A program made the translations under genes and the position numbers. Of a stretch of DNA of 64,000 bases, positions 3 to 58,942 are shown one piece after another (positions within the stretch are counted from its first letter, which is position 1; every line of letters starts with the position of its first letter). Source of the stretch: an uncultured Candidatus Saccharibacteria bacterium (GTDB lineage: Bacteria > Patescibacteriota > WWE3 > UBA101185 > UBA10185); contig CAYLMU010000003.1 in assembly GCA_964385105.1 (NCBI GenBank), forward strand, positions 2,470 through 66,469, given 5' to 3'. Below the pieces are notes generated by a model, which was not told where the DNA came from, made no database searches, and worked only from the letters and a program-made list of their open reading frames with translations.

Positions 3-149
3 AGCACGGGCGGACAAGCAGTTTTTGTAAGTTCAAGAATTGAAGGTGAATCATTTACAGTTGCTATTGATACACCACTATGGGCAAATGACATCACGTT
101 TGACTGGTGGATAGTAAATGTTGAACCTGCAACGACTCAAAATGATTAA
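3..149 (+). CDS. 3' end of a gene (partial, N-terminus outside window). C-terminus ...DTPLWANDITFDWWIVN resembles the C-terminus of the 33045-33731 product (…LNDAEFDWWITN).
   Basis: Open frame from the window edge to TAA at 147-149. The shared C-terminal FDWWI(V/T)N motif with a second protein in the window suggests a paralogous family. Confidence 0.4.
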   Translation, partial: STGGQAVFVSSRIEGESFTVAIDTPLWANDITFDWWIVNVEPATTQND

Positions 150-201
150 TTTAACAACAAATGTTAGTTCAAATTACATATTAAAACGAATATAATTCAT
201 A

Positions 202-3200
202 ATGCACATGCTCGGTAAATTAAAAACAAAACTTGCCCAATTATTAATAAAAATCCTTCCTTATGCGACTAAGTTTGTGAACTTGTTAAAGCTTTTTTTA
301 AACAAAATTCGTCACGTTAGAAAACAAACTGTTAAAAAATTAGCTCCGTTTGCATTTGGAGCTCTTGTGGTAATTGTTCCTGTTGCCTATTTATTATTAA
401 ATAATACCGTAGAGGCTGAAGCCGGATGGTGGGTTACTGATACACCATGGCAAAAAAGACACAGACTAAACTTAACAAATAACTCATCCGAAAATTTTGC
501 TGCAGGTAATACCGTTTCGATAACGGTAAACACTATGCAAATGTATAGTAACCGTGAACTCAATGCGGACTGCTCTGACTTACGAATTTTGTATCAACCT
601 AACAATAACACTCAACAGGAACTTAGCCGCCATGTAGTATTTGAAAACGACGGTGACTGTACAACCAGTGACGCAACAAGAGTTTATTTTCCTTTACAGG
701 CAAATTTAAATTCTGGCAGTTCAACAAGAGATTATTATGTTTATTATTCAAATACCCAAGCTACTTCCCCATCATCTCAAATTGATGCATATGATATAAG
801 CTCGGTAAATGCACTATTTGCATGCGAATTTAGAGGAAACGCCAACTGTGTTAACAGCAATGGTGCTGTTTCTCCAAACACAGAATCAGGTGCCGTAAGA
901 TTTATGGGTTCAAAAAGTGCTTTAAATTTTGACGGTACTGGAGATTACGCTTCCGCTGCTGATTCAACAAGTTTATCGATAACTGATAATTTAACTGTTG
1001 AAGCATGGGTAAAGTTAAAACAAGTTGATGTAGAACAAACAATTGTCGGGAAATGGGATGAAACCACGGGTACAGATAACAGATCATACAGATTATATAT
1101 AACATCAGGTAACAAATTTGCTTTCGAAATATCTACAGACGGCACAAGCGCTACTGTAACAACAATCACCGGTTCTACTACAACAGCAAGTAAAGGTTCA
1201 TGGTATCACGTAGCAGGGGTTTACAACGCTAATAACGAAACACTTGACCTTTATGTAAATGGAATTTCTGATAATACGCAAGTTGGCTCAGCCGGTGGTG
1301 AGATTGATGATAACTCATCACTTTTATATATTGGCGGTAAAGAAAACACAAGTGGCATCGTTAACACTTTGTTTATGGGCATTTTGGATGAAATTAGAAT
1401 ATCTAACACTATAAGATACTCAACAAATGGCGATGCACCAGAGTCATCTTTTATAACAGATTTTAATACTATGGCTCTGTACCACATGGATGAAGCAGGT
1501 TCAGACCCCCGTGCAAATGGTACAACATTAGACGCAACAACTAATAATAACGATGCTACTTTAAATGGTCCTACATATGTATCGGGAATGGTAGGAATAG
1601 ACGGACCTTCGGAATTTGGGTCACACACAGGTGCTAATAATTCAGCAACGTTGGTAGACACAAATGCGTCATGGGCACCAAATGAATGGGTCGGTTATAT
1701 TGTTAATAATTCAACCGATGCCTCACACGGTACTATCACTGCAAATACAGTAAATACAATTACAGCAACTTTAGCAGGAGGCGAAGAAAATGATTTTGAT
1801 ACCGGGGATTTATATGCTCTTTCACCTGACCTTGGTAAAGAAGTATCTCAATCATTTGCCTCAAGAAATGGCGTTTTTGTGGAAGAAGCCACAACAAACT
1901 TAATTGATAATCCAAGTTTTGAAAATACAACTTATGATACAAGCTGGAGTGAGGGGTCAGGGTCTGGCGTGATTATTGCGACAACGAGAGCAACTGCCAA
2001 CACCGGGGGAGGCACTCAAGATATAACAACAAGCAAGCTGGGAGGTAACACTCCAAAAGCTGTTTTAATAATTGCTACCGACACGACTACAGATGGTTTA
2101 GCAACTGCGGGCATGAGTTACTCATATGGTGCTGCAACAGGGACTTCAAATCAATGGGTTTCGTGGCAGAATACAAGCGATGCTACTACCAGTAACCATA
2201 GATCAGCTATAGAAACGGATAACGTCATTTGTAATACACCACCAAATGTCACTGTTGGTGCTGCAAGATGCGCTTACGGTCAAGCTGCATTCTCTCAATT
2301 CATTACAAATGGTGTTAGATTGCAGTGGGACACTTTAAAAGTTCCGGCAAGTGCCTTTTATATAACTGTAGTTTTCTTTGCAGGTTCAGATGTAAGTGCC
2401 CATGCGAATTCATTTAGTCTAGGCGATACAACTAATGGCAGTGTAACAACCACAGCCCCAGGATTTCAGTTTGATTTATTATACGGAGCAACAACCAAAA
2501 ACGGATATAATGTATTTAACGGGGGGTATGGGTTTGCTCATTTTGATGGAAGTACAATAACTCAAAGAGCATATATACATCATAACAGAATTAGTGCCCA
2601 AAGTGCATGGGCCTTTGTAAGAAATGATGCTATTGCAGGAGAAATTCGACCCGATACTACTGGTGATATAGACTATAGAGCCGAGGTTACAAATGTATCA
2701 TCAACCGGATTTACTATAAGAACTACAGGCGCCGGCGGTAATAATACTCCGTTTGTTTATTTAGCGTTAGATTTTGGGGACACAGTAGATTCATGGGTAG
2801 GAACTCACTCAACCCCCACATCAACAGGAAACTACTCAGACACAGGTCCAGGATTTACCCCTCAATATACATTAATGATTCCTAATTATGTTGAAGCACT
2901 AAATACAAAAGCTGATGACGCTAAGGCCGGATCGTTTGGTTTTTCTGTAATAGATGCACTAAATCAATATTCCAACAGCTATACATTTCAAGATGCTACT
3001 TCACCCTCAAATACATCAAGTCTGGCTAACAACAAAGCGGTACACATCCTCTCGGATAATCAAACAACTAGCAGTATACAAGGTGATTTTGTTTCTTTTG
3101 ACACAGCTGCCGGGTGGACAACAAACTATACAGCAGTTACTGGCAACTCAAAGCGTTGGCCCGCTGCATCTGTACAATCTATAACTTATCTCACACGAAC

Positions 3201-6200
3201 TATAGAAACTGTTTCACCATATGTTAAATTCGGTTCAAGAGCTGCAAAAATTGCGGCATCAGCTGACACCACATTAGTAAACTCAGTGTCAATTGGTGCA
3301 AGTCCAAGCACCCACACCATGTCGTTGTACGCATACTTAGGCACTTCAGGCAGCGAAGGGGGTACAATTGACAACACTATTGCGCGTATTTTATGGGAAG
3401 GGACTTCACAAGCTTCTACCTCATATGAAGATGTAGGAGGAGGTTGGTGGAGGCTTACCTACTCTGCAACACCTACCGCCAGCACAACAAGTGATTTTGG
3501 AGTGTGGCTTGCCGAGGGCGAAACAATTTATGTAGACGGCTTTATGCTTGAAGAAAAACCAACTGCATCAACTTACACAGACGGCTCACTGGGAGCAGGT
3601 TATTCTTGGAGCGGAACTATTAACGAATCTTCCAGTTCAAGAGCAGCTGCTGACATTGATTACACTGCATCCGGTAATATTGACGCATCTAAAGGAAGTA
3701 TAAGTTTTTGGCTTAAACCCAACTGGGATGGCGATGACGGGGTTGAACACACTTTTTTTGATGTCGATACAGCATCCACATTTAAAATTTATAAAACAAG
3801 CTCAAATGTACTAACATTTACAGACGGAACAAATACAGCTACCACATCAACAACATCCTGGAATAAGGGTGATTGGCATCATATAGTTGCTACCTGGACC
3901 TCAGGTGATATGGATATATATGTAGATGCTTCTGCCGGAACAGATGATTCATATTCGGCACCAACGCTAGGTACTAACTTTTATATTGGGCAAAATAAAT
4001 CAAACACTTCGCATGCCTCAGCTGTAATTTCTAATTTAAGAATTTATGACTCGGTACTTAGCTCAGCACAAATCACTGACTTATATCACTCGAATTTATA
4101 TACTTTTGAACAAGAGTATTTTGTAGAAGCATTTATCGGAGATAAAGGACAAGATCCTATTACGATTTTACATATGGACGAAGCTTACGGTACAACTGTA
4201 CATGATGCATCACAGTATAGAAATGATTTTGGACTATCGGGTGCTTCTTGGGTAGCTGAAAGTTCTGTGACCGGAGGTACACTTAGAACCCGATACATAA
4301 ATTTTGACGGCACCAACGATTACTTAATTAACGAAAACACCGAAGATTTTAGGTTTGGAACTGACTCTTTTTCAATTTCCGGGTGGTTTAGACATCCCAT
4401 AACTGTACCGGATGGAGGAACAACGGACACAATATTAGCTCATTACGATACAACCGGATATAAAATCTATATGAATTCAAGCGGTCAGCTATGTTTTGGT
4501 ATTGATAACGATTCAACATGGTCACCCACCGATACAATTTGTTCTACTATGAGCTATGCTGACTCTACCTGGCATCACTTTAGTGCAGTTAAAACCGGAA
4601 CTTCAAGTATTGCAATTTACATAGATTCAACCCAAGTAGGACAGAACACGTCACTAAGTGCTACTGCTTCTCTATCGCATAATAAACCAATGTATATAGG
4701 TATTGATAGTAATGGTTCTTCTAACCCCTGGGAAGGTGATCTTGATGAAATAAGAATATACTCATACGCCAGATCAGAAGAACAAATTAAAATTGATTTT
4801 GCAGGGTCTTTCGGGGTAGCTTTTGGTACAGGTATTGAAAGTCAGTTGCAAAACGGCCTTGTAGCTCATTGGAAAATGGATGAAAATACAGGTACAACCT
4901 TAAGTGATTCAAGTGGCAATGCCAATAACAGCCAGAACTTTTCAGGAAACACAACGTGGGCACCCGGAAGATATGGTTCAGGATTGTTATTTGACGGCAA
5001 TAATGACGCTGTACTATTCAATGAAACACCTTCAACAGATTTAGGCGCTTTAACAGACTCCTACACAGTGTCCACTTGGTTTAAAACTACTACCAATGCC
5101 TCATCTACAGTTGTATTAGTTAATAAAGGTGTGGGAGCTGCGTCACCGATGAGTTTGGAACTTTCAGATACCGAGGTTGCCCAGTTTAGGATATTTGGTG
5201 GAGGCAACTCTTCATTAGCTGTAGGATCTGCTGCTCTAAACGATGGCAAATGGCATTTAATTACCGGGGTTAGAGATGTTAATGAAGACAAAGTGTTTAT
5301 ATATGTTGATGGTGAATTAGCAGGATTAACTACCGACACATTGACTTCAAGTGCTGCAAATGACAGTCAGCTATCACTCGGTGCAGCAGAAGATCTTTCG
5401 GGTGATTTTACAGGTACAATGGATGACACACGAATATACAATAGAGCCCTTTCTGCGAGTGAGGTTCAAATGCTGTATCAATATTCAGCGGCACCTGTGG
5501 GATATTGGGACTTCAATGTAGGAACCGGTACTGTTGCTCAAGATGTCTCAAATAACAAAAATGATGGTACTTTAACCGGCATGGTGTCGTGGATTCCAGG
5601 CATATTCGGTTCCGGAATAGATACAAATACCGCATCATCCGGTGTGGAAATTACAGACCCTCCCGGCGGAGAACTCGACTTTGATGCTGATGACAGTTTC
5701 ACATGGATGGGATGGGTAAAAACTACAAATATTGGTACTTCAAGTATATTTTTACAAAAAGGAAGAATAGAAAACAGTGTAGCAGGATACCGTGCACGAG
5801 TAGACACTTTCGGTAGAGCAAGTTGCGGCGTTTCAAATGCAGTAGACACAGGTACTACACAAATATCCGGAACCAGTGTAGTTGCAGATGGTATGTGGCA
5901 CCATGTTACTTGTGTTGATATATATACAGGCAACGCATCCCCGAATGATAGAAGACTTTTACTTTATGTGGACGGTGTGTTAGAAAACTCATTAATACAC
6001 TCTGAAGAAATAAGTAATTCAACAGAAAATTTAAACATTGGACATATAAATGCTGCTACGTATTGGCAAGGGCAAATTGATGAAGTTAAAATTTACAACT
6101 ACGCCCGAACTCCCGAAGAAATTATCAAGGATATGAATGCGGGTCATCCGACACCCGGCTCACCCATTGGGTCAGCATTGGGACATTGGAAATTTGATGA

Positions 6201-8325
6201 AGGCTATAGCAATATTGCACACGATTCCGGAATTTTAGGTAAAAACGGGACTATAACTAATGCTACCTGGTCTAATGATGCAAAACTGGGTAAATCTTTA
6301 AATCTTGATGGTACAGGTGATTTTGTGCAAGTAGGTGATGACGACTCTTATTCGTTTGGAAACGGTACTTCAGACAATCCTTTTACAATAAGTGCCTGGA
6401 TTAATAAAAACTCTACAGGAGGAGGCGATATTGTATCAAAATTCACATTAAACGGAGTTCACCTAGAATATAGACTGATTAACCCAAGTGGAAAAGATTT
6501 GGAATTTATTTTGTATGATGATTCGAGCACATCCAATATCGGAAGACGCGCAACATCAAAACTGCCTGACATAAGTGAATGGGTTCACATTGTTGGTACT
6601 TATAATGGGAATGGATCCACAAGCGGTATCAGGTTATACATAAATGGTGTACGCTCAGATGATACAAATATAATCAACGGAACTTATACGGCCATGGAAA
6701 ACACCACAGCGCCACTAGCATTCGGTGCAATTTCAACAGACGGCACACCGTCATCAGATATCCCAGCAAAACTTGACGATATTCGTATTTACACCTCAGA
6801 ATTTTCTCAAAGCCAAATCGACACCTTATATAATCTGGGGTTTGCACAATTATTAGGTGCAACCGGCAGTGATTTATCTGGAAGACCAACAGAATACTGC
6901 CCTCCCGGAGAAGTTCCTGCATGTACTGCACCTATTGCAGAATGGAAACTTGATGAGAACTTAGGTATTAGTGCCTTTGATACAAGTGGAAACGGAATTA
7001 CGGGTACTTTGGGGGGTGACGGTAGCGGGTCGGATATTCCTGTATGGAGACCCGGAAAAGTTGGACAATCCCTACTATTTGATGGCGTTGATGATTTTAT
7101 TAGCATGGGCGACCCTTCGAGCGGGATTTTGGACTTTGGCATTAGTTCGGCGTTCACTATTTCTTTATGGGTTAAAACTGATATTGACGCTATTACAGAT
7201 ACGTATCCTCTAATTATAAGTAAAGAGGGAGGTTCCCCTAGAAATGGTTACAATATACTGGCAAACCTTGCACAATATTCCAATAACTGGACAGGTCAAG
7301 TATTTGCTGGCGGAACGCAATATAACTGTGATAGCCTTGTAGATATAACTGATGGAAAGTGGCATCATCTGGCTTTTAAACACGTTTTCAATCTTTATGC
7401 TACATATACAGACGGGAAAATGACAAATATATGCACACTTACAAATTCAAATATTTCTAATTCAATGAGTTTTCATGTCGGAACACATTCAGTCCCCTTC
7501 ACAGGAAGCTACTTTAACGGTCAGATAGATAACATTCGAGTTTATAATTATACTAGAACCCCCGCACAAACGGCATGGGAATATAATCATGGAGCGCCAG
7601 GTGCCCATTGGAAATTTGATGAGTGCAGTGGTACTACAGCAAATGACTCCTCAGTCCGTAATTACCGGGGCACTATAAACGCCGGCGGTAGCGGCAGCAA
7701 CACAAGTGCTGGAACTTGCGGAGGAAGCCCAGGAACTATGTGGTCAGACGGTGCTGCAGGTAAACACAATGCGAGCCTGGAATTTGACGGTACCAATGAT
7801 TACGTGTCTGTCGGGGATGTAGATTATTTTGATTTGTCTCATATATTCTCAACATATACCTTCACCGGATGGTTCAAGAGATCGTCATTCAACACGCATG
7901 ATGTAATTCTTTCTAAGGATTCTGATATTATGAACAGTGCGGTGCCCGGTTATTCACTATATATAACATCGGATGACGTAGTGAAATTTTCAATAAAAGA
8001 TAAAAACAATAACTTAACCTCTGTAACCGGCTCATCTTTAATAACAGATTCTGAATGGTACCACGTCGCATTAGTGTTTTTCGGTAATGGTACAAACATA
8101 CCAGGAATAAGTTTGTATATTAATGGAAAACTTGAAGGTGAAAATACCGCAGGTGTATGGCTTTACGACTCTTCGAATAACCTTAGCTTCACCATTGGTG
8201 CTGAATCTGACGGCAACCACCCGTTCCATGGACAAATTGACGACGTTCGACTATTTTACTACGGCTTAACACCGGATCAAATTAAAACAGTTATGAATAA
8301 TGGCGCTGTAAACTTTATGCAATAA
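202..8325 (+). CDS. Giant (2707 aa) membrane-anchored surface protein. It has a single N-terminal TM helix followed by at least eight LamG-like (concanavalin A-like lectin/glucanase, Laminin_G_3-type) repeats.
   Basis: Uninterrupted 8.1-kb ORF. N-terminal hydrophobic segment FAFGALVVIVPVAYLLL. Recurrent modules of type W(K/H)(F/M)DE...G...D.SG.GN.G..G...W..G..G.AL.FDG.DD(Y/F)V....D...I(D/N)E(I/V)(R/K)IY(N/S)(R/Y)A(L/R)(S/T)..(E/Q)I, e.g. LDEIRISNTIRYS, DLDEIRIYSYARSEEQI, MDDTRIYNRALSASEVQMLY, IDEVKIYNYARTPEEI, LDDIRIYTSEFSQSQIDTLY, IDNIRVYNYTRTPAQ, IDDVRLFYYGLTPDQI. Thr/Ser/Asn/Gly-rich composition. No internal stops. The exact start is uncertain (202 or nearby Met). Confidence 0.75.
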   Translation: MHMLGKLKTKLAQLLIKILPYATKFVNLLKLFLNKIRHVRKQTVKKLAPFAFGALVVIVPVAYLLLNNTVEAEAGWWVTDTPWQKRHRLNLTNNSSENFAAGNTVSITVNTMQMYSNRELNADCSDLRILYQPNNNTQQELSRHVVFENDGDCTTSDATRVYFPLQANLNSGSSTRDYYVYYSNTQATSPSSQIDAYDISSVNALFACEFRGNANCVNSNGAVSPNTESGAVRFMGSKSALNFDGTGDYASAADSTSLSITDNLTVEAWVKLKQVDVEQTIVGKWDETTGTDNRSYRLYITSGNKFAFEISTDGTSATVTTITGSTTTASKGSWYHVAGVYNANNETLDLYVNGISDNTQVGSAGGEIDDNSSLLYIGGKENTSGIVNTLFMGILDEIRISNTIRYSTNGDAPESSFITDFNTMALYHMDEAGSDPRANGTTLDATTNNNDATLNGPTYVSGMVGIDGPSEFGSHTGANNSATLVDTNASWAPNEWVGYIVNNSTDASHGTITANTVNTITATLAGGEENDFDTGDLYALSPDLGKEVSQSFASRNGVFVEEATTNLIDNPSFENTTYDTSWSEGSGSGVIIATTRATANTGGGTQDITTSKLGGNTPKAVLIIATDTTTDGLATAGMSYSYGAATGTSNQWVSWQNTSDATTSNHRSAIETDNVICNTPPNVTVGAARCAYGQAAFSQFITNGVRLQWDTLKVPASAFYITVVFFAGSDVSAHANSFSLGDTTNGSVTTTAPGFQFDLLYGATTKNGYNVFNGGYGFAHFDGSTITQRAYIHHNRISAQSAWAFVRNDAIAGEIRPDTTGDIDYRAEVTNVSSTGFTIRTTGAGGNNTPFVYLALDFGDTVDSWVGTHSTPTSTGNYSDTGPGFTPQYTLMIPNYVEALNTKADDAKAGSFGFSVIDALNQYSNSYTFQDATSPSNTSSLANNKAVHILSDNQTTSSIQGDFVSFDTAAGWTTNYTAVTGNSKRWPAASVQSITYLTRTIETVSPYVKFGSRAAKIAASADTTLVNSVSIGASPSTHTMSLYAYLGTSGSEGGTIDNTIARILWEGTSQASTSYEDVGGGWWRLTYSATPTASTTSDFGVWLAEGETIYVDGFMLEEKPTASTYTDGSLGAGYSWSGTINESSSSRAAADIDYTASGNIDASKGSISFWLKPNWDGDDGVEHTFFDVDTASTFKIYKTSSNVLTFTDGTNTATTSTTSWNKGDWHHIVATWTSGDMDIYVDASAGTDDSYSAPTLGTNFYIGQNKSNTSHASAVISNLRIYDSVLSSAQITDLYHSNLYTFEQEYFVEAFIGDKGQDPITILHMDEAYGTTVHDASQYRNDFGLSGASWVAESSVTGGTLRTRYINFDGTNDYLINENTEDFRFGTDSFSISGWFRHPITVPDGGTTDTILAHYDTTGYKIYMNSSGQLCFGIDNDSTWSPTDTICSTMSYADSTWHHFSAVKTGTSSIAIYIDSTQVGQNTSLSATASLSHNKPMYIGIDSNGSSNPWEGDLDEIRIYSYARSEEQIKIDFAGSFGVAFGTGIESQLQNGLVAHWKMDENTGTTLSDSSGNANNSQNFSGNTTWAPGRYGSGLLFDGNNDAVLFNETPSTDLGALTDSYTVSTWFKTTTNASSTVVLVNKGVGAASPMSLELSDTEVAQFRIFGGGNSSLAVGSAALNDGKWHLITGVRDVNEDKVFIYVDGELAGLTTDTLTSSAANDSQLSLGAAEDLSGDFTGTMDDTRIYNRALSASEVQMLYQYSAAPVGYWDFNVGTGTVAQDVSNNKNDGTLTGMVSWIPGIFGSGIDTNTASSGVEITDPPGGELDFDADDSFTWMGWVKTTNIGTSSIFLQKGRIENSVAGYRARVDTFGRASCGVSNAVDTGTTQISGTSVVADGMWHHVTCVDIYTGNASPNDRRLLLYVDGVLENSLIHSEEISNSTENLNIGHINAATYWQGQIDEVKIYNYARTPEEIIKDMNAGHPTPGSPIGSALGHWKFDEGYSNIAHDSGILGKNGTITNATWSNDAKLGKSLNLDGTGDFVQVGDDDSYSFGNGTSDNPFTISAWINKNSTGGGDIVSKFTLNGVHLEYRLINPSGKDLEFILYDDSSTSNIGRRATSKLPDISEWVHIVGTYNGNGSTSGIRLYINGVRSDDTNIINGTYTAMENTTAPLAFGAISTDGTPSSDIPAKLDDIRIYTSEFSQSQIDTLYNLGFAQLLGATGSDLSGRPTEYCPPGEVPACTAPIAEWKLDENLGISAFDTSGNGITGTLGGDGSGSDIPVWRPGKVGQSLLFDGVDDFISMGDPSSGILDFGISSAFTISLWVKTDIDAITDTYPLIISKEGGSPRNGYNILANLAQYSNNWTGQVFAGGTQYNCDSLVDITDGKWHHLAFKHVFNLYATYTDGKMTNICTLTNSNISNSMSFHVGTHSVPFTGSYFNGQIDNIRVYNYTRTPAQTAWEYNHGAPGAHWKFDECSGTTANDSSVRNYRGTINAGGSGSNTSAGTCGGSPGTMWSDGAAGKHNASLEFDGTNDYVSVGDVDYFDLSHIFSTYTFTGWFKRSSFNTHDVILSKDSDIMNSAVPGYSLYITSDDVVKFSIKDKNNNLTSVTGSSLITDSEWYHVALVFFGNGTNIPGISLYINGKLEGENTAGVWLYDSSNNLSFTIGAESDGNHPFHGQIDDVRLFYYGLTPDQIKTVMNNGAVNFMQ

Positions 8326-8436
8326 GTACAAGTATATAGTTTCTCATTAGAGAAATGTCATACTTTTACATTATTGACACTACACTACTTGCACATGTAA
8401 CCTGAATGCACTTAGTAATTATTTACGGGAGTGAAC

Positions 8437-10716
8437 ATGAAACAAAATGCCCTAGTGATTGAAAAAATAATCAATCTCTTCATAATTGGCACAACCCTCT
8501 TAATGCCCATTTTTTTCTTACCCATAACAACCGAGTTTTATGAGATTAATAAACTCGCCCTCTTAACAGTATCAACTTTGGTTTTAGCAGTGCTCTGGGG
8601 ATTGAAACTTATTTTCAGTCAAAAGGTGTATGTGATTAAAACCCCAATTAATCTCGCTATCATAATATATTTGGCGGTATTCATACTCGCCACTATATTC
8701 TCGAACAACTTTTATCTAAGCATGTTCGGACAATACGCAAGATGGTTTCCTAGTTTATTTTCTTTTGTGACTGTGGTGGTATTCTTTTATATTGCGGCCA
8801 TCAACATTACAGATGAAAAAACTATAAACAACATTTTGTTTGCACTTATAGCGGGAATTACAATAAACACAATTGTAGGTCTTTTAAGCTACTTTGGTGT
8901 TTATTTATCGGGTAATGCATACGCACAGACACCTAACTTTTCACTAGTAGGCAATCCGACTACCGCTGCGATACTAGCAGCTATAGCTGTTATCATTGGC
9001 ATAAATAAATTGCTAAACATTACTTTTATGCCCGGTAGAATACTCTTGGTTCAGCTCGTTATTGTAAATGCTGTGCTGCTGGTTCTTTACGGCATATTTG
9101 CAGCGTGGTTTGTTCTTGCAATCGGTTTAATCTCAACCTTTGTAATGACAAGAACAGAAAAAATAACGAGTAATGCGATTTTTCTAACAGTAATAGCAGG
9201 AGCAGTTGCAGCGTTATTACTTGTTGTTTCAATGCCAAGAACCAAAGAATTAGTAATAAATGATAACTTTGCAAAGGAAATTAAACTGGACTTTAACAGT
9301 TCATGGATAATTACCGGCGCCACAGTTACAAATGACGCTCTTTTAGGTTCAGGGCCGGCAACATTCCAGAACAATTTCACGTTGTACCGACCCTCGGAAT
9401 TAAATGCAACTGATTTCTGGAACATCAGATATGACAAACCCTACAATGAGATTTTTAACATAATGTCTTCATTGGGAATCTTTGGTGCTATTGCCGCAGC
9501 ATATCTTGGAATAAAAATATTTCAGGAAATCTTGGCAACAAAATCTAACAAAGATGATAGTGGTTTAAATGTGATGTTAAGTGCTTCAACTCTTGCTATG
9601 TTGAGTATGGTTGCAGTTACATATATAACAGTGCTAAGTGCATTTGTTTTATTTGTATTACTGGCATTAACCACAGCGTATAATGCAACGCATACAAAAA
9701 GCAAAACCGACAGGGTTTTACTAAGTTTAGCCTCGCTAAGTACTATGTCATTGCTTGAAAGCCTTGGTGGTAATGATACAAATGAAATACTTCAATATAT
9801 TGTTACCGTACCGTTGCTAATATTTGCAGGTCTATGGGGGTATTTCTTGTACCAAACATATACACCTGAATATTATATGAGAAAATCGGCTATAGCTATC
9901 CAGGCAAATGACGGACTTGGAGTATACAACAACCAAAGACGAGCTTTGGAAATCAACGGAAGAAGATCTGAATACCGTAACGCATTCGCTCAAACAAATC
10001 TGGCAATTGCTAATGCCTTAGCTCAAGGTGAAAATGTTAATGATGAAACCAGACTTAACATACAAAATCTTATAGCTCAAGCAATCAGAGAGGTTAAGAT
10101 TTCAACTGAAGTCTTGAATCCAGGCAGTGCAGCCAACTGGGAAGTTCGAGCAAGTGTCTATAGATCTCTAAGAGGTGTTGCTCAAAATTCAAGTCAGTGG
10201 GCATTGCAGGCATATGATGCTGCAATACAACTTGACCCTACAAACCCAAGATTAAGACTTGAAGCAGGAGCTGTATATTATGCAGAACAGGACTTTTTAT
10301 CAGCAGCCAATATGTTTAGACAAGCTGCAAATCTAAAGCCTGATTATGCAAATGCACACTTTAATATGGCACACTCATTAAAACAGATGCAAAACTATCC
10401 TTTAGCACAAAGAGAATTTCAGATAACACAAACTTTAGTTGAAAGAGATTCGGAAGATTATGCTCTGTTACAAAGAGAGCTTGAAGATATTGCTGAACTT
10501 GCAGCTAGTACAGCAGACAACACGCAAGAAAACATTCCTACCGTTGAAGAACTTGAACAACAGCAACAACTTCAAGAACAAAGCCAGCCGTCTGCACAAG
10601 GACCTCTTGTAGCACCTGAGCAAGTGGTTGCTCCTCAAAGTCAAAGCTTAGACTTAAGCCCTGAAGAAGCAGAAGAAATACAAGAACAGAATCAAAACCA
10701 AACCGAACAAGAGTAA
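8437..10716 (+). CDS. Polytopic membrane protein with a C-terminal TPR-repeat region and a Q/E-rich tail. It is possibly an O-antigen ligase/polymerase-like (Wzy_C-type) protein.
   Basis: At least 10 predicted TM helices in the first ~480 aa. The C-terminal soluble part has TPR-like repeats (AYDAAIQLDPTNPRLRLEAGAVYYAEQDF..AANMFRQAANLKPDYANAHFNMAHSL). ATG at 8437 lies 6 nt after the SD GGGAG (8426-8430); the ORF track's GTG at 8431 is an alternative. The family call is an inference from architecture only. Confidence 0.5.
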   Translation: MKQNALVIEKIINLFIIGTTLLMPIFFLPITTEFYEINKLALLTVSTLVLAVLWGLKLIFSQKVYVIKTPINLAIIIYLAVFILATIFSNNFYLSMFGQYARWFPSLFSFVTVVVFFYIAAINITDEKTINNILFALIAGITINTIVGLLSYFGVYLSGNAYAQTPNFSLVGNPTTAAILAAIAVIIGINKLLNITFMPGRILLVQLVIVNAVLLVLYGIFAAWFVLAIGLISTFVMTRTEKITSNAIFLTVIAGAVAALLLVVSMPRTKELVINDNFAKEIKLDFNSSWIITGATVTNDALLGSGPATFQNNFTLYRPSELNATDFWNIRYDKPYNEIFNIMSSLGIFGAIAAAYLGIKIFQEILATKSNKDDSGLNVMLSASTLAMLSMVAVTYITVLSAFVLFVLLALTTAYNATHTKSKTDRVLLSLASLSTMSLLESLGGNDTNEILQYIVTVPLLIFAGLWGYFLYQTYTPEYYMRKSAIAIQANDGLGVYNNQRRALEINGRRSEYRNAFAQTNLAIANALAQGENVNDETRLNIQNLIAQAIREVKISTEVLNPGSAANWEVRASVYRSLRGVAQNSSQWALQAYDAAIQLDPTNPRLRLEAGAVYYAEQDFLSAANMFRQAANLKPDYANAHFNMAHSLKQMQNYPLAQREFQITQTLVERDSEDYALLQRELEDIAELAASTADNTQENIPTVEELEQQQQLQEQSQPSAQGPLVAPEQVVAPQSQSLDLSPEEAEEIQEQNQNQTEQE

Positions 10717-10744
10717 CAAAGTGGTCAATTACGGATTGCTAAAA

Positions 10745-10771
10745 CCTCCGGCACAACCGGAGGTTTTTTTA
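10745..10771 (+). terminator. Rho-independent terminator downstream of the membrane/TPR gene.
   Basis: Perfect hairpin cctccggcacaaccggagg (10745-10763) followed by ttttttt. Confidence 0.7.
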
Positions 10772-16382: not shown

Positions 16383-17540
16383 ATGAAAAGATACTGGCTC
16401 CAAACTGTTGCAACAAGTACATTCTTAATCATAATAACAACAGTCATTTTCCTATACACTTCAGGATATAGAGTGTTAAGAGAAGAAAGTGTGAATGTTG
16501 ATTTTAAAAGAACCGGCATGATAAGTGCCAAGTCTATTCCTGAAGGTGCAAATGTATATTTAAATGGCGTACTAAAAACAGCATCAAACGATACAATTCA
16601 AGCCCTTGACCCCGGCACTTATCAATTAAGAATAGTGCGAAACGGTTTTGTAACATGGGAAAAAGATGTTGAAGTTTTTGCAGAGCTTGTAACTGATATA
16701 ACGGCCGTTTTAATTTCACAAAGCCCAAGACTGGAACCTCTTACAAACACAGGCGCCAGAATGCCTGTCATATCGCCAACATTAAGTAAACTCGCATATT
16801 TCTCAAAAGACGGAACTGAATCGGGAGTTTGGATAATTCCTCTTACAAACACCGGCCTTAGCCTTTTTAGAGCTGAACCATATATAGCTATAGAAGACAC
16901 TTTCAACACAATATTCTCTAACGGTAAATCAATTGAGTGGTCACCCGATGAAAAAGAGCTTCTAGTCCAAGGGCCAAACGACCTTTTTTATGTTATAGAC
17001 ATTGGTACAAAAGCAGTAGAATCAACCACATCACCCGATGCTGTACGAAACGAATGGGAGGAAATCAGACATGTGAAAAGAGCTGACTTTCTATCAAGAA
17101 TAGATATTCCCGAAAATATGCTGATAATAGCAAACGCACCTGAAACAATGTGGTCACCGGATGAAAAAAAGTTTTTGTACAAAGTCACCAATGAAGAAGC
17201 CGGTACAACTGAATACAGAGTTTATAACATGGAAAAGCCCATACCGGTTGGAGAAAAAGTCGACAATCTAGTATTCACATTAAATGCAGATGACCCTCAA
17301 CCTGTTGTCACATGGTATGCGGACAGCTTTCACTTAATATTGGTTGAAGGAAACACCGAAGAAGAAAAACGCGGCGTCATTAGCTTAATTAGAATAGACG
17401 GTACAAATAAAACCGAAATTTATAACAACACAATGTACTCACAAAACGTTTACAGCTCACCGGGAGGCGACAAGCTTATTTTCTTGACATCATTTAAGTC
17501 CGGTGGTCAAACTGATTTATATACCATTGGTATAAGATAA
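16383..17540 (+). CDS. Membrane-anchored PEGA-domain protein with a TolB/PD40-like beta-propeller region.
   Basis: N-terminal TM (FLIIITTVIFLYT). PEGANVYLNGVLKTASNDTIQALDPGTYQLRIVRNGFVTWEKDVEV is a PEGA domain. Repeated WSPDEK../SSPGGDKLIF motifs are typical of PD40 repeats. Confidence 0.6.
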   Translation: MKRYWLQTVATSTFLIIITTVIFLYTSGYRVLREESVNVDFKRTGMISAKSIPEGANVYLNGVLKTASNDTIQALDPGTYQLRIVRNGFVTWEKDVEVFAELVTDITAVLISQSPRLEPLTNTGARMPVISPTLSKLAYFSKDGTESGVWIIPLTNTGLSLFRAEPYIAIEDTFNTIFSNGKSIEWSPDEKELLVQGPNDLFYVIDIGTKAVESTTSPDAVRNEWEEIRHVKRADFLSRIDIPENMLIIANAPETMWSPDEKKFLYKVTNEEAGTTEYRVYNMEKPIPVGEKVDNLVFTLNADDPQPVVTWYADSFHLILVEGNTEEEKRGVISLIRIDGTNKTEIYNNTMYSQNVYSSPGGDKLIFLTSFKSGGQTDLYTIGIR

Positions 17541-18405: not shown

Positions 18406-18480
18406 TGGTGCCCCCGGCAGGAATTGAACCTGCATTTTACCCTTAGGAGGGGTATGTTCTATCCGTTGAACTACAAGGGC
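18406..18480 (-). tRNA. tRNA-Arg(CCU) with encoded CCA.
   Basis: Reverse complement GCCCTTGTAGTTCAACGGATAGAACATACCCCTCCTAAGGGTAAAATGCAGGTTCAATTCCTGCCGGGGGCACCA folds as a cloverleaf: acceptor with two G-U pairs, D-arm GTTC/GAAC, anticodon stem TACCC/GGGTA, loop CUCCUAA giving anticodon CCU, T-arm GCAGG-TTCAATT-CCTGC. Confidence 0.7.
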
Positions 18481-18555
18481 AAGCACCTTAATATTTTATG
18501 ATAAAATGTACAATACCGCCAGTTTATCATAGAATTTTTATGTGGTTGTATATAA

Positions 18556-18643
18556 GGAGGGGTGCAGGAGTGGCTTATCTGGCCGGTCTTGAAAACCGTG
18601 CATGCGCAAGCATACGAGGGTTCGAATCCCTCCCCCTCCGCCA
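18556..18643 (+). tRNA. tRNA-Ser(UGA) (class II, long variable arm) with encoded CCA.
   Basis: GGAGGGG...CCCCTCC acceptor. G73 discriminator. Anticodon loop CUUGAAA gives UGA. Variable arm ATGC-GCAA-GCAT. T-arm GAGGG-TTCGAAT-CCCTC. Confidence 0.75.
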
Positions 18644-20341
18644 TGTGGAATTGATAGCTTCTTGAAGTTCTTTTTTGCTTGTTATACCAGCCAATACTTT
18701 GGGTTCTAACTGTTGTTTTATCTCTTGTATCTCATTCAATCCTTTTTCAATTAAGAAGAAGTGTTTTTGCTTATCAAACCATAGTTTTTTGTCTTTTAAT
18801 TTTAGGTTCAAACCAAGTGATTGAAGTATTTGTGTTTTGGTATTTGAATCTCCATTTTTAAGCCAGTAGTTAGCATATCTAGCAAAATTAAATGCTTTTT
18901 CTGTGTTTTCCGTTGCTGTTTCAACCCTGTTGTTATTATCGTTAATTAAATCCTCAACTTCTTTTATTCTTGATAGCAAATCTTTTCTTTGTAATACATA
19001 TTCCTGTTCTGAAATTCTACTACCATCTCTATTTTCAGGGGATACTTTAAGTTTAAGTAGTTCTTTTAGGGAATATTGTAAGTTCTCTAATTCTACATTC
19101 AGCCCGTTACAAGACTTTCTAATAACATTAAAATCAACGTCTGTAACTTCGTGAATATATTTGATAGCAAGATTCAAAAAGTCATCATCTATTTCAAATT
19201 TGCTTATTTCAGCCTCAATAGTTTGCTCTAAATTATCAACTCTCATAGCCTTTTCAGTGCAGTTAGGATTTGTCTTTTTAGCACAAGAAAGATATACATA
19301 ATGTAGGATTTTTGGATTATCCATTTGTTCAATTAGCATTCCACAATTAGTACAAGCATTTCTATCTTGGGTTTTAGCAAATTTAGTTTTACAGTTACTA
19401 CAAATTACTTGCCATTTCTCATGTGCTGTAATACTTCCTCCACAACCACCACAAACTAAAGCCTTTTTATATGGAAAATCCTTATCTTTTGAATAATGAC
19501 TTCTAGTTTTCTTACCAAGTCTAATTTGAAGCGTATTAAACTCATCAATTGTTAGCATTGCAGGGTGTTTACCCCAACATTCACCATCTTTACGTTGAAT
19601 ATAGCCATATATAAAGGGCTTAGATAGAAAGCGATACCAAGCAGTTCTACTCATTGGCTTTCCACCTTGTTTAAAAGATTTTCTAGTTTTAAATCCCCAT
19701 TTATCATTAAGAATATGCAGGGCTTCCATAAGGGAATAGCCCTCGTAGATTATTAAATAAATTGCTTTTTGTATTAAATCAAAAGAAACAGGGTCTTTAT
19801 CAATAGACTTTTCCTTTGTATAAGGGTTTGTAACATTAATATATCCTTGCAATGCTTGGGTTGGAATATATCCTTCTCGTAACTTTTTTCTATTTCCTCT
19901 TTTTACATTTTGGGATTTATCATCACTATCTTTTTTAGCCATGCCAAATTCAATAGTAAGCAGTAAAACATCGGAAGAATCACCAGTAAAAATCTTGTAG
20001 GGTGTTCTTAACTCTAAAATTTTGCCTGTACTCATTAAATACAAGAAGTCTCCTGCATCTTTTGGGTTTCTGCTTATTCTATTTGGTTGCCAACATAAAA
20101 CCCCATTTGCCTCACCTTTTTCTATTCTTTTTAGCATTTCATTAAATCGTGGTCTGCCTATTTTGTATGCACTCTGTGCCTCTGAAAATACCCCTACAAT
20201 CTTTAACCCTAGTTTTCTAGCATATTCTCTTAGTTCTTCCTCTTGTGCTTCTAGGGAAAGGATTTGTCTATCTTCTTCCTCGCTACTTTTACGAATATAT
20301 AAGAAGTATCTTTTTTCAATTTCTAGAATTTCATTAAACAT
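18575..20341 (-). CDS. Large serine recombinase (resolvase/invertase-type catalytic domain + recombinase domain + zinc ribbon + coiled-coil). The annotated C-terminal ~25 aa are translated from the antisense of tRNA-Ser.
   Basis: N-terminal YIRKSSEEEDRQILSLEAQ (catalytic Ser motif). Cys cluster CGGCGGS...CSNCK...CTNCG (zinc ribbon). Long coiled-coil region. The ORF 3' end (18575-18643) is antisense to the tRNA. Confidence 0.85.
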   Translation of the reverse strand: MFNEILEIEKRYFLYIRKSSEEEDRQILSLEAQEEELREYARKLGLKIVGVFSEAQSAYKIGRPRFNEMLKRIEKGEANGVLCWQPNRISRNPKDAGDFLYLMSTGKILELRTPYKIFTGDSSDVLLLTIEFGMAKKDSDDKSQNVKRGNRKKLREGYIPTQALQGYINVTNPYTKEKSIDKDPVSFDLIQKAIYLIIYEGYSLMEALHILNDKWGFKTRKSFKQGGKPMSRTAWYRFLSKPFIYGYIQRKDGECWGKHPAMLTIDEFNTLQIRLGKKTRSHYSKDKDFPYKKALVCGGCGGSITAHEKWQVICSNCKTKFAKTQDRNACTNCGMLIEQMDNPKILHYVYLSCAKKTNPNCTEKAMRVDNLEQTIEAEISKFEIDDDFLNLAIKYIHEVTDVDFNVIRKSCNGLNVELENLQYSLKELLKLKVSPENRDGSRISEQEYVLQRKDLLSRIKEVEDLINDNNNRVETATENTEKAFNFARYANYWLKNGDSNTKTQILQSLGLNLKLKDKKLWFDKQKHFFLIEKGLNEIQEIKQQLEPKVLAGITSKKELQEAINSTWRRGRDSNPRMLAHARFSRPAR

Positions 20342-20364
20342 AGTTTCCTTTTTTCTTCGTTGTG

Positions 20365-20373
20365 ATTATATCA
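20365..20373 (-). promoter_or_regulatory. Extended -10 promoter element (TGaTATAAT) for the recombinase gene.
   Basis: Reverse complement of 20365-20373 is tgatataat, ~27 nt upstream of the recombinase ATG, followed by an AAAGGAA SD-like sequence. Confidence 0.35.
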
Positions 20374-20397
20374 CTGTATTTCTTTCTAACTTTCCTA

Positions 20398-20542
20398 GTT
20401 TAACCGCTATTAGATAATCGGTTAAACACAAATTTAATACTTTTGCTTATAAGAGGGAAAATGGCGTGTGCATTTTCCCTCAAATCCCATTGTTTTGGTT
20501 GTTACAGTCGTCAAGGGCGCTACCGCGCCTATCCTTGACGAC
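20398..20542. promoter_or_regulatory. Cluster of three perfect inverted repeats between the recombinase and the 362-aa cargo gene. Candidate operator, origin (ori/oriT) or attP-derived site of the element.
   Basis: IR1 gtttaaccg-N12-cggttaaac (20398-20427). IR2 gggaaaatg-N7-cattttccc (20455-20479). IR3 gtcgtcaagg-N16(GC-rich)-ccttgacgac (20507-20542). Confidence 0.45.
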
Positions 20543-20549
20543 CCCAATA

Positions 20550-21638
20550 CTAAAGTGTGTTTCTTAAGTTTTGTAGTAGTTCCATAACGTCTGTATCGGG
20601 GGCGTTTACAGCAAGATTACTTGGTATTTTTAAATCAAATTTAAAATCTTTTAATGTGTTAATTATTCCTATATCAGCATTTTTCAACAAATCCAAGCGT
20701 TTTTTAACAGTGCTTAAAGTTAAATTATCTTCAAGGATAATTCTATTTTGCTTTTCCTGTGTTTTATCCGCACAATACCAAGTGTTTACAAACTGAAACA
20801 GATTTATAGCCTTCTTCTTATCGTAAACCGATTGTAGTTTGTTAAAAACTTCAATCATATCCATAGACTCATAATTGTTCGTTTTTACAAGTTCTGATAA
20901 TGACTGCTTAAGTAAATCCTCAATAATGTTGGTATCACGTATTCTGGTATAGTTGCTATCTTTCTCACCAAACACCTGTTGAATTTTCTTTTTGTGCATG
21001 GTTACTTCTGTTCTAAAGATACCTTCACTAAACTCATGTAATTTATATGCAAAGTTTGGGTCTATTTTTCTAATATCTTTAAAGTCGTGGGCTTTAAATT
21101 CCGGCTGTTTCTGATAAAACTTAAGTTTATATGTATTACCCCAATAAGTTAGCGATTCATCATCAATTAAAATCTTCTTTTTTCTTGGATATTCATAACT
21201 TGAAAGATTAGTGATAATACATTTACACTCTACATTTGATAGCAATTTCCAAGCGTAACAAATATCAAGTCTTTGAAGTATCCACAAAAATGGGTCTGGT
21301 AGTGTTATTTCATAAAACTGTTCAAGAATATGTTTTACTTTTTGCAATACATCAACAATTTTATCGGGATAAAGCATAAAGATATTTGTTCCATACATTA
21401 CTTTTGGTGCTGAAAATTCAATAAATATGTTATCCCAATTAAATGCAGATACATATATTTGATATCCATTTTCTTCTATAATTGGTTTTGAATAGTAGTA
21501 ACTTCCTTTTTTCTCATAAGTGTTTGTTTCTTCTTCCTGTATCTCTGGTTCAATTTCTCTTTTTTCATAGAATTTCTTTTTACAAACATCAAAAATATCT
21601 TTATTACTTGGGATTTTCCATCGGGTAGTGTCTAACAT
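20550..21638 (-). CDS. Hypothetical protein (362 aa), cargo of the integrated element. Possibly replication/maintenance-associated (speculative).
   Basis: Long ORF with normal protein-like composition. No recognisable catalytic motif. Located between the recombinase and a wHTH protein, with the IR cluster immediately 3'. Confidence 0.5.
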   Translation of the reverse strand: MLDTTRWKIPSNKDIFDVCKKKFYEKREIEPEIQEEETNTYEKKGSYYYSKPIIEENGYQIYVSAFNWDNIFIEFSAPKVMYGTNIFMLYPDKIVDVLQKVKHILEQFYEITLPDPFLWILQRLDICYAWKLLSNVECKCIITNLSSYEYPRKKKILIDDESLTYWGNTYKLKFYQKQPEFKAHDFKDIRKIDPNFAYKLHEFSEGIFRTEVTMHKKKIQQVFGEKDSNYTRIRDTNIIEDLLKQSLSELVKTNNYESMDMIEVFNKLQSVYDKKKAINLFQFVNTWYCADKTQEKQNRIILEDNLTLSTVKKRLDLLKNADIGIINTLKDFKFDLKIPSNLAVNAPDTDVMELLQNLRNTL

Positions 21639-33044: not shown

Positions 33045-33731
33045 TTGCTATGCTATAATCGTGACATGAACGATTACTTACCCATTGATGAATTCATAAA
33101 GCTTGCAGAACAAAAAGGTGTGGATTTTGGTAACGGAGACCCATATAACAGATTAAGATATTATACAAAAATCGGATGGATTCCACATATGACACGAATG
33201 AAAGGTGATGAAGCCTCTACCAAAGGTCATTTATCCAAGTCTATTGTAGATAGACTTTTATACATTCAAGAATTAAAAGATTCCGGCATGACAAATGATG
33301 AAATAACGGAAGAATTAAGCAAACAAAGTAAATTTCAAACACTGATATCAATAATCAAATCAGAAAAATTTCAGAATAAATTTACAGCAGTTGCCCTGCT
33401 AGTAATGCTGTTTATTGTTTTAGTATCAGAGCTGGGTGTAATTAAAATAGGTAAATCGCAGACACCGGCCTCGTTTATAGTACAAAATAATAATCCTAAT
33501 ATATCAATTATCGATGCCGGAAGTGCTTTTATGCCTCGAGGTGAAAAGACAGTATTTGTCACAAATGTGGAGGTTACAGAGACTTCAAAAATTTATGTAT
33601 CGTTTAAAAATGACTTTTCGCCTGCAGCAAAATTCTGGATTTCAGAACAAATACCCGGTACAGGCTTTAGAGTTGAACTGGATGCTCCAACTTTAAACGA
33701 TGCTGAATTTGATTGGTGGATTACTAATTAA
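33045..33731 (+). CDS. Hypothetical protein: N-terminal MerR-like HTH, central TM helix, and a C-terminal domain ending FDWWITN (paralogous to the gene ending at 149).
   Basis: N-terminal ...YNRLRYYTKIGWIPHMTRMKGDEASTKGHLSKSIVDRLLYIQELKDSGMTNDEI. TM AVALLVMLFIVLVSELGVI. C-terminal similarity to the window-start gene. Confidence 0.5.
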   Translation: MLCYNRDMNDYLPIDEFIKLAEQKGVDFGNGDPYNRLRYYTKIGWIPHMTRMKGDEASTKGHLSKSIVDRLLYIQELKDSGMTNDEITEELSKQSKFQTLISIIKSEKFQNKFTAVALLVMLFIVLVSELGVIKIGKSQTPASFIVQNNNPNISIIDAGSAFMPRGEKTVFVTNVEVTETSKIYVSFKNDFSPAAKFWISEQIPGTGFRVELDAPTLNDAEFDWWITN

Positions 33732-55237: not shown

Positions 55238-55380
55238 ATTACCTACCAGTATTTAAATTTCAAAAAGTACTCAATTTGTGAGCAAAAGCGATGGACCCAG
55301 TAAACCCGAAATGGGCAACCGGACCCTCGATTTTGCTCACAAAAGAACTACGCTCTGACAAGACGTAGTATGCTGATAAA

Positions 55381-55425
55381 GAAAAACAATCTGCAGGCCT
55401 GAAAGGCCGAAGCCGTTTTTCGTAT
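55381..55425. repeat. 45-nt structured repeat, copy A, in the 23S-5S spacer (gaaaaacaatctgcaggcctgaaaggccgaagccgtttttcgtat).
   Basis: 44/45 identical to 58943-58987. Outer 7-bp stem GAAAAAC/GTTTTTC enclosing GGCCTTCGGCC-type inner hairpins. Confidence 0.7.
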
Positions 55426-55932
55426 CAGCATACGAAGCTGTACTCTAAAAACTGAACAAAACTTTGATTAAGCCCAATTACTAAAAGTCTTAATTTAAAG
55501 ATGCGCACACATTAGTACTGCTTAGCTAAACACATTACTGTGCGTACACTTGCAGCCTATCAACCTGGTAATCTCCCAGGAGGTACGTCCGATAAATCGG
55601 AAGAATTCTAATCTTGGGATGGGCTTCGTGCTTAGATGCTTTCAGCACTTATCCCGACCGAACGTAGCTACCCAGCGATGCCACTGGCGTGACAACTGGA
55701 ACACTAGAGGTTCGTCCGCTCCGGTCCTCTCGTACTAGGAACAGCCTCCCTCAGAATTCATACGCTCGTTGTGGAAAGAGACCGAACTGTCTTACGACGT
55801 TCTGAACCCATCTAACGCGCCTCTTTAATGGGCGAACAGCCCAACCCTTGGAACCTGCTTCAGCTCCAGGATGAGACGAGACGACATCGAGGTGCCAAAC
55901 ACCGCCGCCGCTATGAACGCTCGAGCGGTATT

Positions 55933-55965
<33 letters not shown>

Positions 55966-58033: not shown

Positions 58034-58076
<43 letters not shown>

Positions 58077-58645: not shown

Positions 58646-58677
<32 letters not shown>

Positions 58678-58942
58678 TGTTCACTATCGGTGTCCTCATG
58701 TATTTAGCCTTAGCTGATGGTCCAGCTGTATTCACACAGGGTTTCACGTGCCCCATGCTACTCTGGATAAACCCAAGAAGGCATTTTTGTTTCGAATACA
58801 GGGCTATTACCTGCTATGGCGCAGCTTTCCAGCTGGCTTCTTCTACAAAAATACTTTTTTACTTCTTTGTCATTCAAGATGACGTAGGGCTTTCCTAACC
58901 CCCTAATCTTAAAACTTTGTTTCAAAATATTTGTGCAATTAA

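Follow-up and report, generated by a model that had tools for sequence, protein, structure and literature searches.

A giant LamG-repeat protein of WWE3 bacteria: a putative adhesin with an embedded triple jelly-roll module shared with a large phage protein family

Large DUF2341 proteins of Patescibacteria and of archaeal pilus loci have been proposed to act as pilus-associated adhesins (PMC4858521, PMC11809585), and the concanavalin/LamG surface proteins of the candidate phyla radiation (CPR), together with their phage-borne counterparts, are viewed as putative attachment factors (PMC11310336, PMC12911398). How CPR/Patescibacteria recognize and hold their hosts is little understood, and the host of the WWE3 lineage is not known. 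A concrete candidate is described here, namely a giant gene at positions 202 to 8325 of a 64,000-nt stretch of WWE3-type DNA (contig CAYLMU010000003.1), called the window, whose positions serve as coordinates. Its product, the giant, is read as a secreted, elongated, multi-domain binding protein and putative adhesin of WWE3/Katanobacteria, whose base is conserved and whose lectin tip evolves fast, a reading from sequence to which a probability of about 0.6 is given. An original prediction made on the same DNA had already seen such LamG giants as attachment proteins. This is indeed how the cited literature treats the CPR concanavalin/LamG proteins, while adhesion by the present one is something we infer. 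The proposed anatomy is testable as such, with its conserved base, its swappable central cassette and its fast-evolving lectin tip.

The gene is a single ATG-to-stop frame; in the Logan gene call, the start is placed two codons later, on the ATG at 208 (2705 residues). The original prediction would have fallen with a fused-assembly artefact or a frameshift, and this possibility was ruled out. The reading frame is real, since 12,144 nt of the window are identical to a separately assembled Logan contig (SRR9016296_40386, run SRR9016296), no DNA repeat longer than 45 nt was found within the gene by a direct-repeat scan, and collinear full-length orthologues of 2632-2712 residues exist. The successive parts of the gene are as follows, pLDDT (predicted local distance difference test) being the confidence score of the AlphaFold2 models.

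202-8325, plus strand: giant open reading frame (ORF), 2707 residues
202-423, plus strand: predicted extended signal peptide, residues 1-74, with a basic n-region containing 12 Lys/Arg, an h-region at residues 47-66 and AEA-GWW at residues 72-77 (the hyphen marks the predicted cleavage site)
424-816, plus strand: divergent DUF2341 beta-sandwich, residues 75-205, with the conserved Cys124/Cys153 pair; pLDDT ~80
895-1428, plus strand: LamG1, residues 232-409; Pfam stretch 244-403
1627-1824, plus strand: small beta domain, residues ~476-541, no Pfam match; strands modelled with pLDDT ~70-79
1966-3177, plus strand: triplicated jelly-roll module, residues 589-992, made of J1 (1966-2388), J2 (2389-2781) and J3 (2782-3177)
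3199-3576, plus strand: beta-sandwich resembling a carbohydrate-binding module (CBM), residues ~1000-1125
3577-4107, plus strand: LamG2; Pfam stretch 1156-1291
4267-4818, plus strand: LamG3, final domain of the conserved N-terminal part; Pfam stretch 1369-1530
4951-5499, plus strand: LamG4, which opens the fast-diverging array; Pfam stretch 1598-1756
5584-6156, plus strand: LamG5; Pfam stretch 1814-1974
6265-6852, plus strand: LamG6; Pfam stretch 2037-2206
7039-7605, plus strand: LamG7; Pfam stretch 2312-2456
7744-8316, plus strand: LamG8, C-terminal; Pfam stretch 2529-2695

Where at least eight LamG/ConA-like repeats had been predicted, exactly eight Laminin_G_3 (PF13385) stretches were delineated by the Pfam hidden Markov model on the whole protein (E 3.9e-158, 520.9 bits against a cut-off of 27.6 bits). 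The protein was also cut into 13 pieces, each scanned separately against Pfam, and every LamG domain then remained significant on its own (65-96 bits against the same cut-off, E 1e-17 to 2e-27). LamG1, the only one of the eight to be modelled, came out all-beta with a pLDDT of 80-90, in line with the beta-sandwich repeats expected. The proposed repeat-closing motif, here (I/L)D(E/D)(I/V)R(I/V)Y...(E/Q)I, is present in most of the LamG domains. The description of the giant as made of ~230-residue LamG modules holds for these eight domains but not for the whole chain: the layout is 1 + 7, with LamG1 isolated near the N-terminus and seven domains in tandem over the last 1,580 residues, and no LamG model matches residues 425-1125 (~700 residues). 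This non-LamG third, which includes a phage-related module, had been overlooked.

Pairwise identity among the eight LamG domains is only 16-28%, which indicates that their duplication is old. The original prediction had suggested comparing repeat number across strains as a sign of host-range variation. No such variation was observed, about eight LamG domains being kept throughout orthologues that share only 33-45% identity, and recent repeat expansion or contraction is ruled out by this constancy and by the low identity between repeats. Mutagenesis by a diversity-generating retroelement was likewise considered and set aside: no template/variable repeat pair occurs in the window, and the only repeat of at least 45 nt to involve the gene is a 45-nt LamG motif at 73% identity, a reverse transcriptase not having been searched for genome-wide. 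An NCBIfam match to TafC (haloarchaeal Tat-fimbria) was also discarded, as it lies below the cut-off and reflects LamG-level similarity only. No catalytic domain was detected in the giant by Pfam or NCBIfam scans. Ligand binding by its LamG domains is putative, by analogy with the general role of LamG/ConA-like domains.

Full-length orthologues of the giant come from WWE3-type genomes only. In a scan of 185,579 GTDB species genomes, the whole N-terminal architecture was recovered in three, namely WWE3 SURF_46, WWE3 UBA1379 and one unclassified metagenome-assembled genome, and the remaining matches cover LamG1 only. The nearest named homologues of the giant, like those of its neighbour gene, all belong to candidate division WWE3, which agrees with a CPR bacterium as the source of the DNA. 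Comparison with five orthologues reveals a gradient along the chain. Residues 75-1539 are mostly 40-68% identical, J2 being lowest with 29-42%, and for the small beta domain identity is 56-65% in four of these comparisons and 32% in the fifth (P0008). Conservation then drops sharply at the LamG3/LamG4 boundary. Identity falls to 19-37% for LamG4-7 and 24-47% for LamG8, LamG4-8 lying mostly at about 30%, and BLAST often misses the positional counterpart of LamG4-8 in the orthologues. In more distant relatives (P0009-P0018), the segment equivalent to residues ~570-985 is absent, or inserts that vary widely in length take its place, so that the central module behaves as a cassette. On these alignments, the variation among orthologues is a matter of LamG4-8 divergence and of central cassette swapping, and not of repeat number.

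The giant contains one hydrophobic segment, at residues 47-66, which had been described as a single N-terminal transmembrane (TM) anchor. The segment is there, but an AxA-type motif followed by Trp, found in 28 of 33 sequences (the query and 27 of 32 homologues), suggests a cleaved Sec signal peptide instead. The residue at -3 is canonically small in 22 of these 28. The motif lies 7-14 residues after an h-region of ~15-20 residues, which itself follows an n-region of very variable length with 0-26 Lys/Arg; it reads AEA-GWW in the giant, and TEA-AWW, AQA-AWS or AYA-APW in homologues. Ala74 and Trp76 are invariant in a 15-sequence alignment, yet the first 74 residues are only 8-28% identical among orthologues. 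Such invariance amid an unconserved N-terminus looks like a type I signal-peptidase site, and cleavage after Ala74 is considered substantially more likely than a permanent N-terminal anchor. The 16 Cys residues of the giant form eight closely spaced pairs, of which the first is invariant and the second nearly so in the same alignment; this pairing and its conservation fit disulfides formed outside the cytoplasm, and hence an extracytoplasmic protein. Ser and Thr together make up 22% of the residues.

Immediately after the predicted cleavage site, the direct match to DUF2341 (PF10102) reaches 15.3 bits (E 0.029) and so stays below the gathering score of 23.4 bits. Residues 72-206 were compared by hhalign with the N-termini of relatives that themselves score 51-72 bits on PF10102, which gave a probability of 99.3% (E 3.4e-20) over the PF10102 region; because of this profile-profile match, residues 75-205 are assigned to a divergent DUF2341. 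At the other end, the C-terminus (...NNGAVNFMQ) shows neither an LPXTG-like motif nor a hydrophobic tail. The predicted lack of an LPXTG signal is thus borne out and extends to any C-terminal anchor; the motif, hydrophobic segment and basic tail of the sortase-anchored LPXTG class are all missing. No class III signal peptide of type IV pilins (G, then after the cut F/M-T-L-x-E) occurs in the giant, nor were SLH or known S-layer domains detected by Pfam.

Residues 556-1140, in the central part of the protein, were modelled with AlphaFold2 from a 36-sequence alignment as an all-beta region (mean pLDDT 83.9, predicted template-modelling score 0.72), in which residues 589-992 form three successive ten-strand sets, followed by the separate sandwich at residues ~1000-1125. 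The thirds of the module recognize one another in hhalign comparisons, with probabilities of 98.8% for J1-J3 (E 5e-17), 98.0% for J2-J3 and 94.2% for J1-J2, which establishes from sequence profiles that the module is internally triplicated. We read the model as three C1q/TNF-like jelly rolls joined in one natural chain, a pseudo-trimer with a putative three-fold packing. TNF-like domains are known as the receptor-recognition parts of trimeric phage tail fibres, such as Pam3 gp24 (PMC9608196). Matches for the modelled region include phage baseplate proteins and then many carbohydrate-binding modules, which cover the C-terminal sandwich. Foldseek searches against PDB and BFVD returned low TM-scores only, to generic beta-sandwiches. 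No match of the module to the C1q or TNF sequence families was found in Pfam at E <= 1, nor any PDB sequence match, and the GTA/phage head spike fibre domain (NF048003) gave nothing above its curated cut-off.

A search with residues 560-1000 retrieved 35 proteins, mostly of 411-440 residues and devoid of Pfam domains, which align from their residue 2 to ~400 with residues 589-992 of the giant (27-41% identity, E 1e-8 to 3e-74). A profile search of 1.84 billion cluster representatives then yielded 8,570 family members at E <= 1e-3, of which 3,702 at E <= 1e-30, the clusters being defined at 50% identity; the phage ~420-residue tail-region family is defined here by proteins P0099-P0262. Among the 129 newly retrieved best-scoring members, the module stands alone in 63, is N-terminal with a C-terminal extension in 50 and is internal in 16; two or three copies occur in 17, and LamG domains accompany the module in one. 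Of the contigs that encode the 35 proteins, three (L004, L005 and L006) clearly belong to phages. Tail tube, tail chaperone and tape-measure genes precede the module gene on phage contig L005, with a LamG gene and a GH25 lysin downstream; contig L006 carries a large terminase and a portal, contig L004 a lysin, a LamG protein and a tail-fibre-like protein, and contig L007 a major head protein gene. Stand-alone module genes either follow the tape-measure gene or have genes for lysins, LamG proteins and tail-fibre-like proteins in their vicinity. With a hand-made degenerate DNA pattern, three more members were found in IMG/VR, one of them a few genes past the major head protein; a single-protein scan of IMG/VR for the module gave no match.

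The family escapes the usual resources. The module and its phage homologues have no match in PHROGs, Pfam, NCBIfam or PDB sequences, and tblastn with three family members found none in 50,697 deposited phage genomes. The module of the giant thus exposes a family of more than 8,500 clusters located in phage tail regions and absent from all four of these collections. By p-distance and neighbour-joining, the modules of the giants lie 0.58 apart, close to the 0.66 that separates them from the phage proteins, which favours neither direction of transfer. Directly upstream of the module gene, four phage loci encode a conserved helical protein of ~105 residues (28-37% identity between loci where detectable), a candidate chaperone or adaptor for the triple jelly-roll family. 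These four genes carry no annotation:

L004:9681-10001: ~105-residue helical protein
L006:2409-2723: ~105-residue helical protein
L007:8052-8366: ~105-residue helical protein
L009:4425-4763, minus strand: ~105-residue helical protein

The possibility that this partner is represented within residues 425-588 of the giant was rejected, as no similarity was found; the giant has no counterpart of it.

The genes and signals on either side of the giant gene are the following.

3-149, plus strand: 3' end of the phage-fibre-like upstream gene, ending in ...FDWWIVNVEPATTQND and stop; also at L003:1-1947, where 648 codons are visible, L003 being the same DNA as the window
168-196, plus strand: best sigma-70-like promoter match of the region (TTCAAA-17-TATAAT), its -10 element ending 6 nt before the ATG; a consensus match only
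8431-10716, plus strand: TPR-containing polytopic membrane protein of 761 residues and ~11-12 TM helices; TPR region C-terminal, tail acidic
10741-10767, plus strand: strong intrinsic-terminator-like hairpin (11 bp stem and T run) between the TPR gene and rplJ

The total of sigma-70-like matches across the region is no greater than in shuffled sequence. The product of the upstream gene bears hallmarks of trimeric phage fibres or spikes: its intramolecular-chaperone domain of the Peptidase_G2 family (28 bits, cut-off 25 bits) is joined by a coiled coil and, at the C-terminus, by a K1-lyase_C-like domain. It had been thought paralogous to the gene ending at 33731. What the two have in common is a C-terminal domain, the last ~70 residues of the upstream product matching the C-terminal end of the protein encoded at 33045-33731 (plus strand) with 34% identity (E 3e-10), but there is no full-length paralogy. 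That second protein consists of a MerR-type helix-turn-helix (MerR-HTH), one TM segment and the ~70-residue domain ending in ...FDWWIxN, and its gene adjoins tRNA-Ala; DNA binding, a membrane location and a fibre-type ectodomain make an odd combination in one protein. The idea of a shared partner module finds some support on the side of the giant: in WWE3 UBA1379 the giant is immediately preceded by a fibre-like homologue (46-66% identity), and in L002 another lies upstream of the giant pair.

In L001 (1-9944) and L002 (1-9691), the orthologue of the giant is preceded by one or two paralogous giants, giving tandems of two or three giant LamG genes with products of 2,287-2,987 residues each. 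All follow the same grammar of signal peptide, AxA-W motif, DUF2341 and LamG domains, and the jelly-roll module is found only in the last gene, which is the orthologue. Downstream, no terminator was found between the giant gene and that of the 761-residue TPR protein, and judging from this layout both are probably co-transcribed. The TPR protein is conserved across WWE3 and many of its homologues have Wzy_C (O-antigen ligase) matches; it might glycosylate or attach the Ser/Thr-rich giant. The genes rplJ-rplL follow the TPR gene in the window, L001 and L011. From the loci compared, the cluster order is thus partly conserved: fibre-like gene, giant gene or genes, O-antigen-ligase-like TPR gene, rplJL. 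In guanine + cytosine (GC) content the giant locus differs little from the remaining genome; together with the conserved chromosomal setting, this speaks against a prophage. Near the locus, a PEGA-domain protein of 385 residues (16383-17540, plus strand) is a further candidate envelope component, PEGA domains having been reported in S-layer and other surface proteins.

The lineage in question is generally regarded as single-membrane bacteria. In the scheme proposed here, Sec would export the giant by means of the extended signal peptide, to be cleaved after Ala74, and the mature N-terminus would begin with the invariant Trp and the divergent DUF2341 domain. The first ~1,540 residues (DUF2341, LamG1, small beta domain, triple jelly-roll module, CBM-like sandwich, LamG2 and LamG3) would form a base assembling on, or attached to, the cell surface, possibly in cooperation with the phage-fibre-like protein encoded upstream. 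LamG4-8 would then be the distal, fast-evolving lectin array providing species-specific recognition of ligands on partner or host cells, a role suggested because of the conservation gradient and of the general function of LamG/ConA-like domains. Within the base, the proposed pseudo-trimer, shared with phage tail-region proteins, may provide a further binding head or connect the giant to a trimeric fibre. In a bolder version, the module would be a complete phage tail-fibre or receptor-binding unit that an episymbiotic CPR bacterium has taken into its main surface adhesin, there either to recognize on the host cell the receptor also used by the phages of this host, or to dock the giant monomer onto the upstream trimeric fibre. 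This is a doubtful, tentative proposal; if true, the locus would in both cases be an attachment organelle of phage origin. Several points weigh against the adhesin scheme. The surface localisation and ligand binding of the giant are predictions from its sequence. The cleavage is read from a motif, and the ~20-residue h-region could equally span the membrane; once cleaved, the protein would keep no known retention signal, be it LPXTG, SLH or pilin-type. No type IV pilus genes are present among the window ORFs scanned, which represent part of the genome. The low identity of LamG4-8 could come from relaxed constraint and not from diversifying selection. Lastly, the module-bearing phage contigs have a GC content of 51-55% against 37-44% for WWE3 genomes, a gap by which these phages probably do not infect the WWE3 lineage.

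Other explanations differ from a secreted adhesin mainly in what holds the giant or in what it is for. An uncleaved signal-anchor at residues 47-66 would turn it into a type II membrane protein, the ectodomain then comprising 2,640 residues. The h-region, long enough to span a bilayer and placed after a very long basic n-region, would allow this, and there is no other retention motif in the giant; the invariant Ala at -1, the mostly small residue at -3 and the invariant Trp that comes next, all maintained in such a poorly conserved N-terminus, make it possible but unlikely. The giant could also be a structural envelope component whose string of beta-sandwiches would build an S-layer or sheath lattice, glycosylated or attached by its O-antigen-ligase-like neighbour. 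Such a role would suit a secreted, Ser/Thr-rich protein free of catalytic domains, whose gene probably shares an operon with that of a Wzy_C-related membrane protein and keeps its place beside rplJL in several genomes. It is judged improbable, given the lack of SLH or known S-layer domains, the two or three tandem paralogous giants of relatives, and a divergent C-terminal half that fits recognition better than a lattice. S-layer proteins are moreover usually smaller than 2,707 residues.

The LamG and CBM-like modules could bind environmental or host-derived polysaccharides for nutrient scavenging, and not for attachment. Against this, the giant has no hydrolase or lyase domain and its gene no adjacent transporter; recognition of cell surfaces is suggested instead by the phage-fibre-like partner and by the phage tail module, which leaves non-catalytic glycan capture very improbable. 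The same phage features raise the question of a prophage or tailocin, in which the giant would be a tail fibre and, with the upstream fibre gene, part of an integrated phage. The Peptidase_G2 chaperone domain and K1-lyase_C-like end of the upstream gene and the phage homologues of the central module can be invoked in its favour. No capsid, portal, terminase or tape-measure genes flank the locus, however, its GC matches the host gene pool, and the rplJ-rplL synteny is kept in L001 and L011 (and L003, the window DNA), with no more than 40-60% identity between the orthologues. Phage fibres do not usually have a Sec signal peptide either, and cargo of this kind is hardly credible.

A few features of the window lie outside this subject. 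The 23S rRNA gene at 55492-59300 (minus strand) is 3,809 nt long against 2,925 nt for the model and contains an ORF for a LAGLIDADG homing endonuclease (56545-57060, minus strand, E 6e-24). The excess length and this ORF indicate an intron-bearing gene, as is common in CPR bacteria. For a second ORF inside it, at 58034-58351, no family was matched. The two copies of a 50-nt direct repeat (96% identity) lie at 55376-55425 in the 5S-23S spacer and at 58938-58987 within the 23S gene, ~310 nt from its 5' end; the repeat may be tied to rRNA processing or intron mobility. At 18406-21638, tRNA-Arg and tRNA-Ser abut a serine recombinase (18575-20341, minus strand) and a Phage_CRI/G2P-type replication initiator (20550-21638, minus strand), an arrangement suggestive of a small element that has integrated here, perhaps akin to an inovirus or a plasmid. 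The tRNA-Ser call, made by ARAGORN, overlaps the recombinase ORF and was not confirmed by Rfam.

Compared with known systems, the giant belongs to an already described kind, that of the large DUF2341 and CPR LamG/concanavalin putative adhesins. With the large DUF2341/LamG proteins (PMC11809585; PMC4858521) it has in common an N-terminal DUF2341 followed by many ConA-like/LamG domains, a very large size, ultra-small symbiotic owners and an inferred function in adhesion or host interaction. It differs from them in that its DUF2341 is divergent and falls under the Pfam threshold, no pilus genes are seen nearby, and a triple jelly-roll module is not reported in any of the cited proteins. For the giants of Patescibacterium danicum, no full-length homologues were found in the paper on that organism, whereas the present architecture is conserved over its full length across WWE3 species. 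The LamG 'adhesion' proteins of CPR/DPANN and of phages (PMC11310336, PMC12911398) belong to the same superfamily, have the same proposed role and also involve domains common to CPR and phages. There, however, the common domain is LamG itself, while here the phage-shared part is another, unannotated module, whose phages have a far higher GC. MSCRAMM-type sortase-anchored adhesins, the microbial surface components recognizing adhesive matrix molecules, are likewise long beta-sandwich strings exported by Sec, but the giant has no LPXTG, no C-terminal anchor and no matching domain families.

The central module invites comparisons of its own. C1q/TNF-like trimeric heads, including that of Pam3 gp24 (PMC9608196), are distinguished from it by the lack of any Pfam or PDB sequence match on its side. 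The ~420-residue proteins of uncultured phages are homologous to it over their full length and display the same triplication; they are mostly stand-alone, or N-terminal modules with varied extensions, and many are preceded by the ~105-residue helical protein that is absent here. Three traits of the WWE3 locus are absent from the descriptions cited: the embedded triple jelly-roll module, whose phage family is very large and lacks annotation; a LamG architecture fixed at 1 + 7, with its conserved base and variable tip; and the conserved pairing with a phage-fibre-like gene. A natural single-chain trimeric head of C1q/TNF type would be of interest both to the biology of phage receptor-binding proteins and to protein engineering. 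If the link between module and adhesin is functional, this would be a cellular symbiont reusing the host-recognition hardware of phages.

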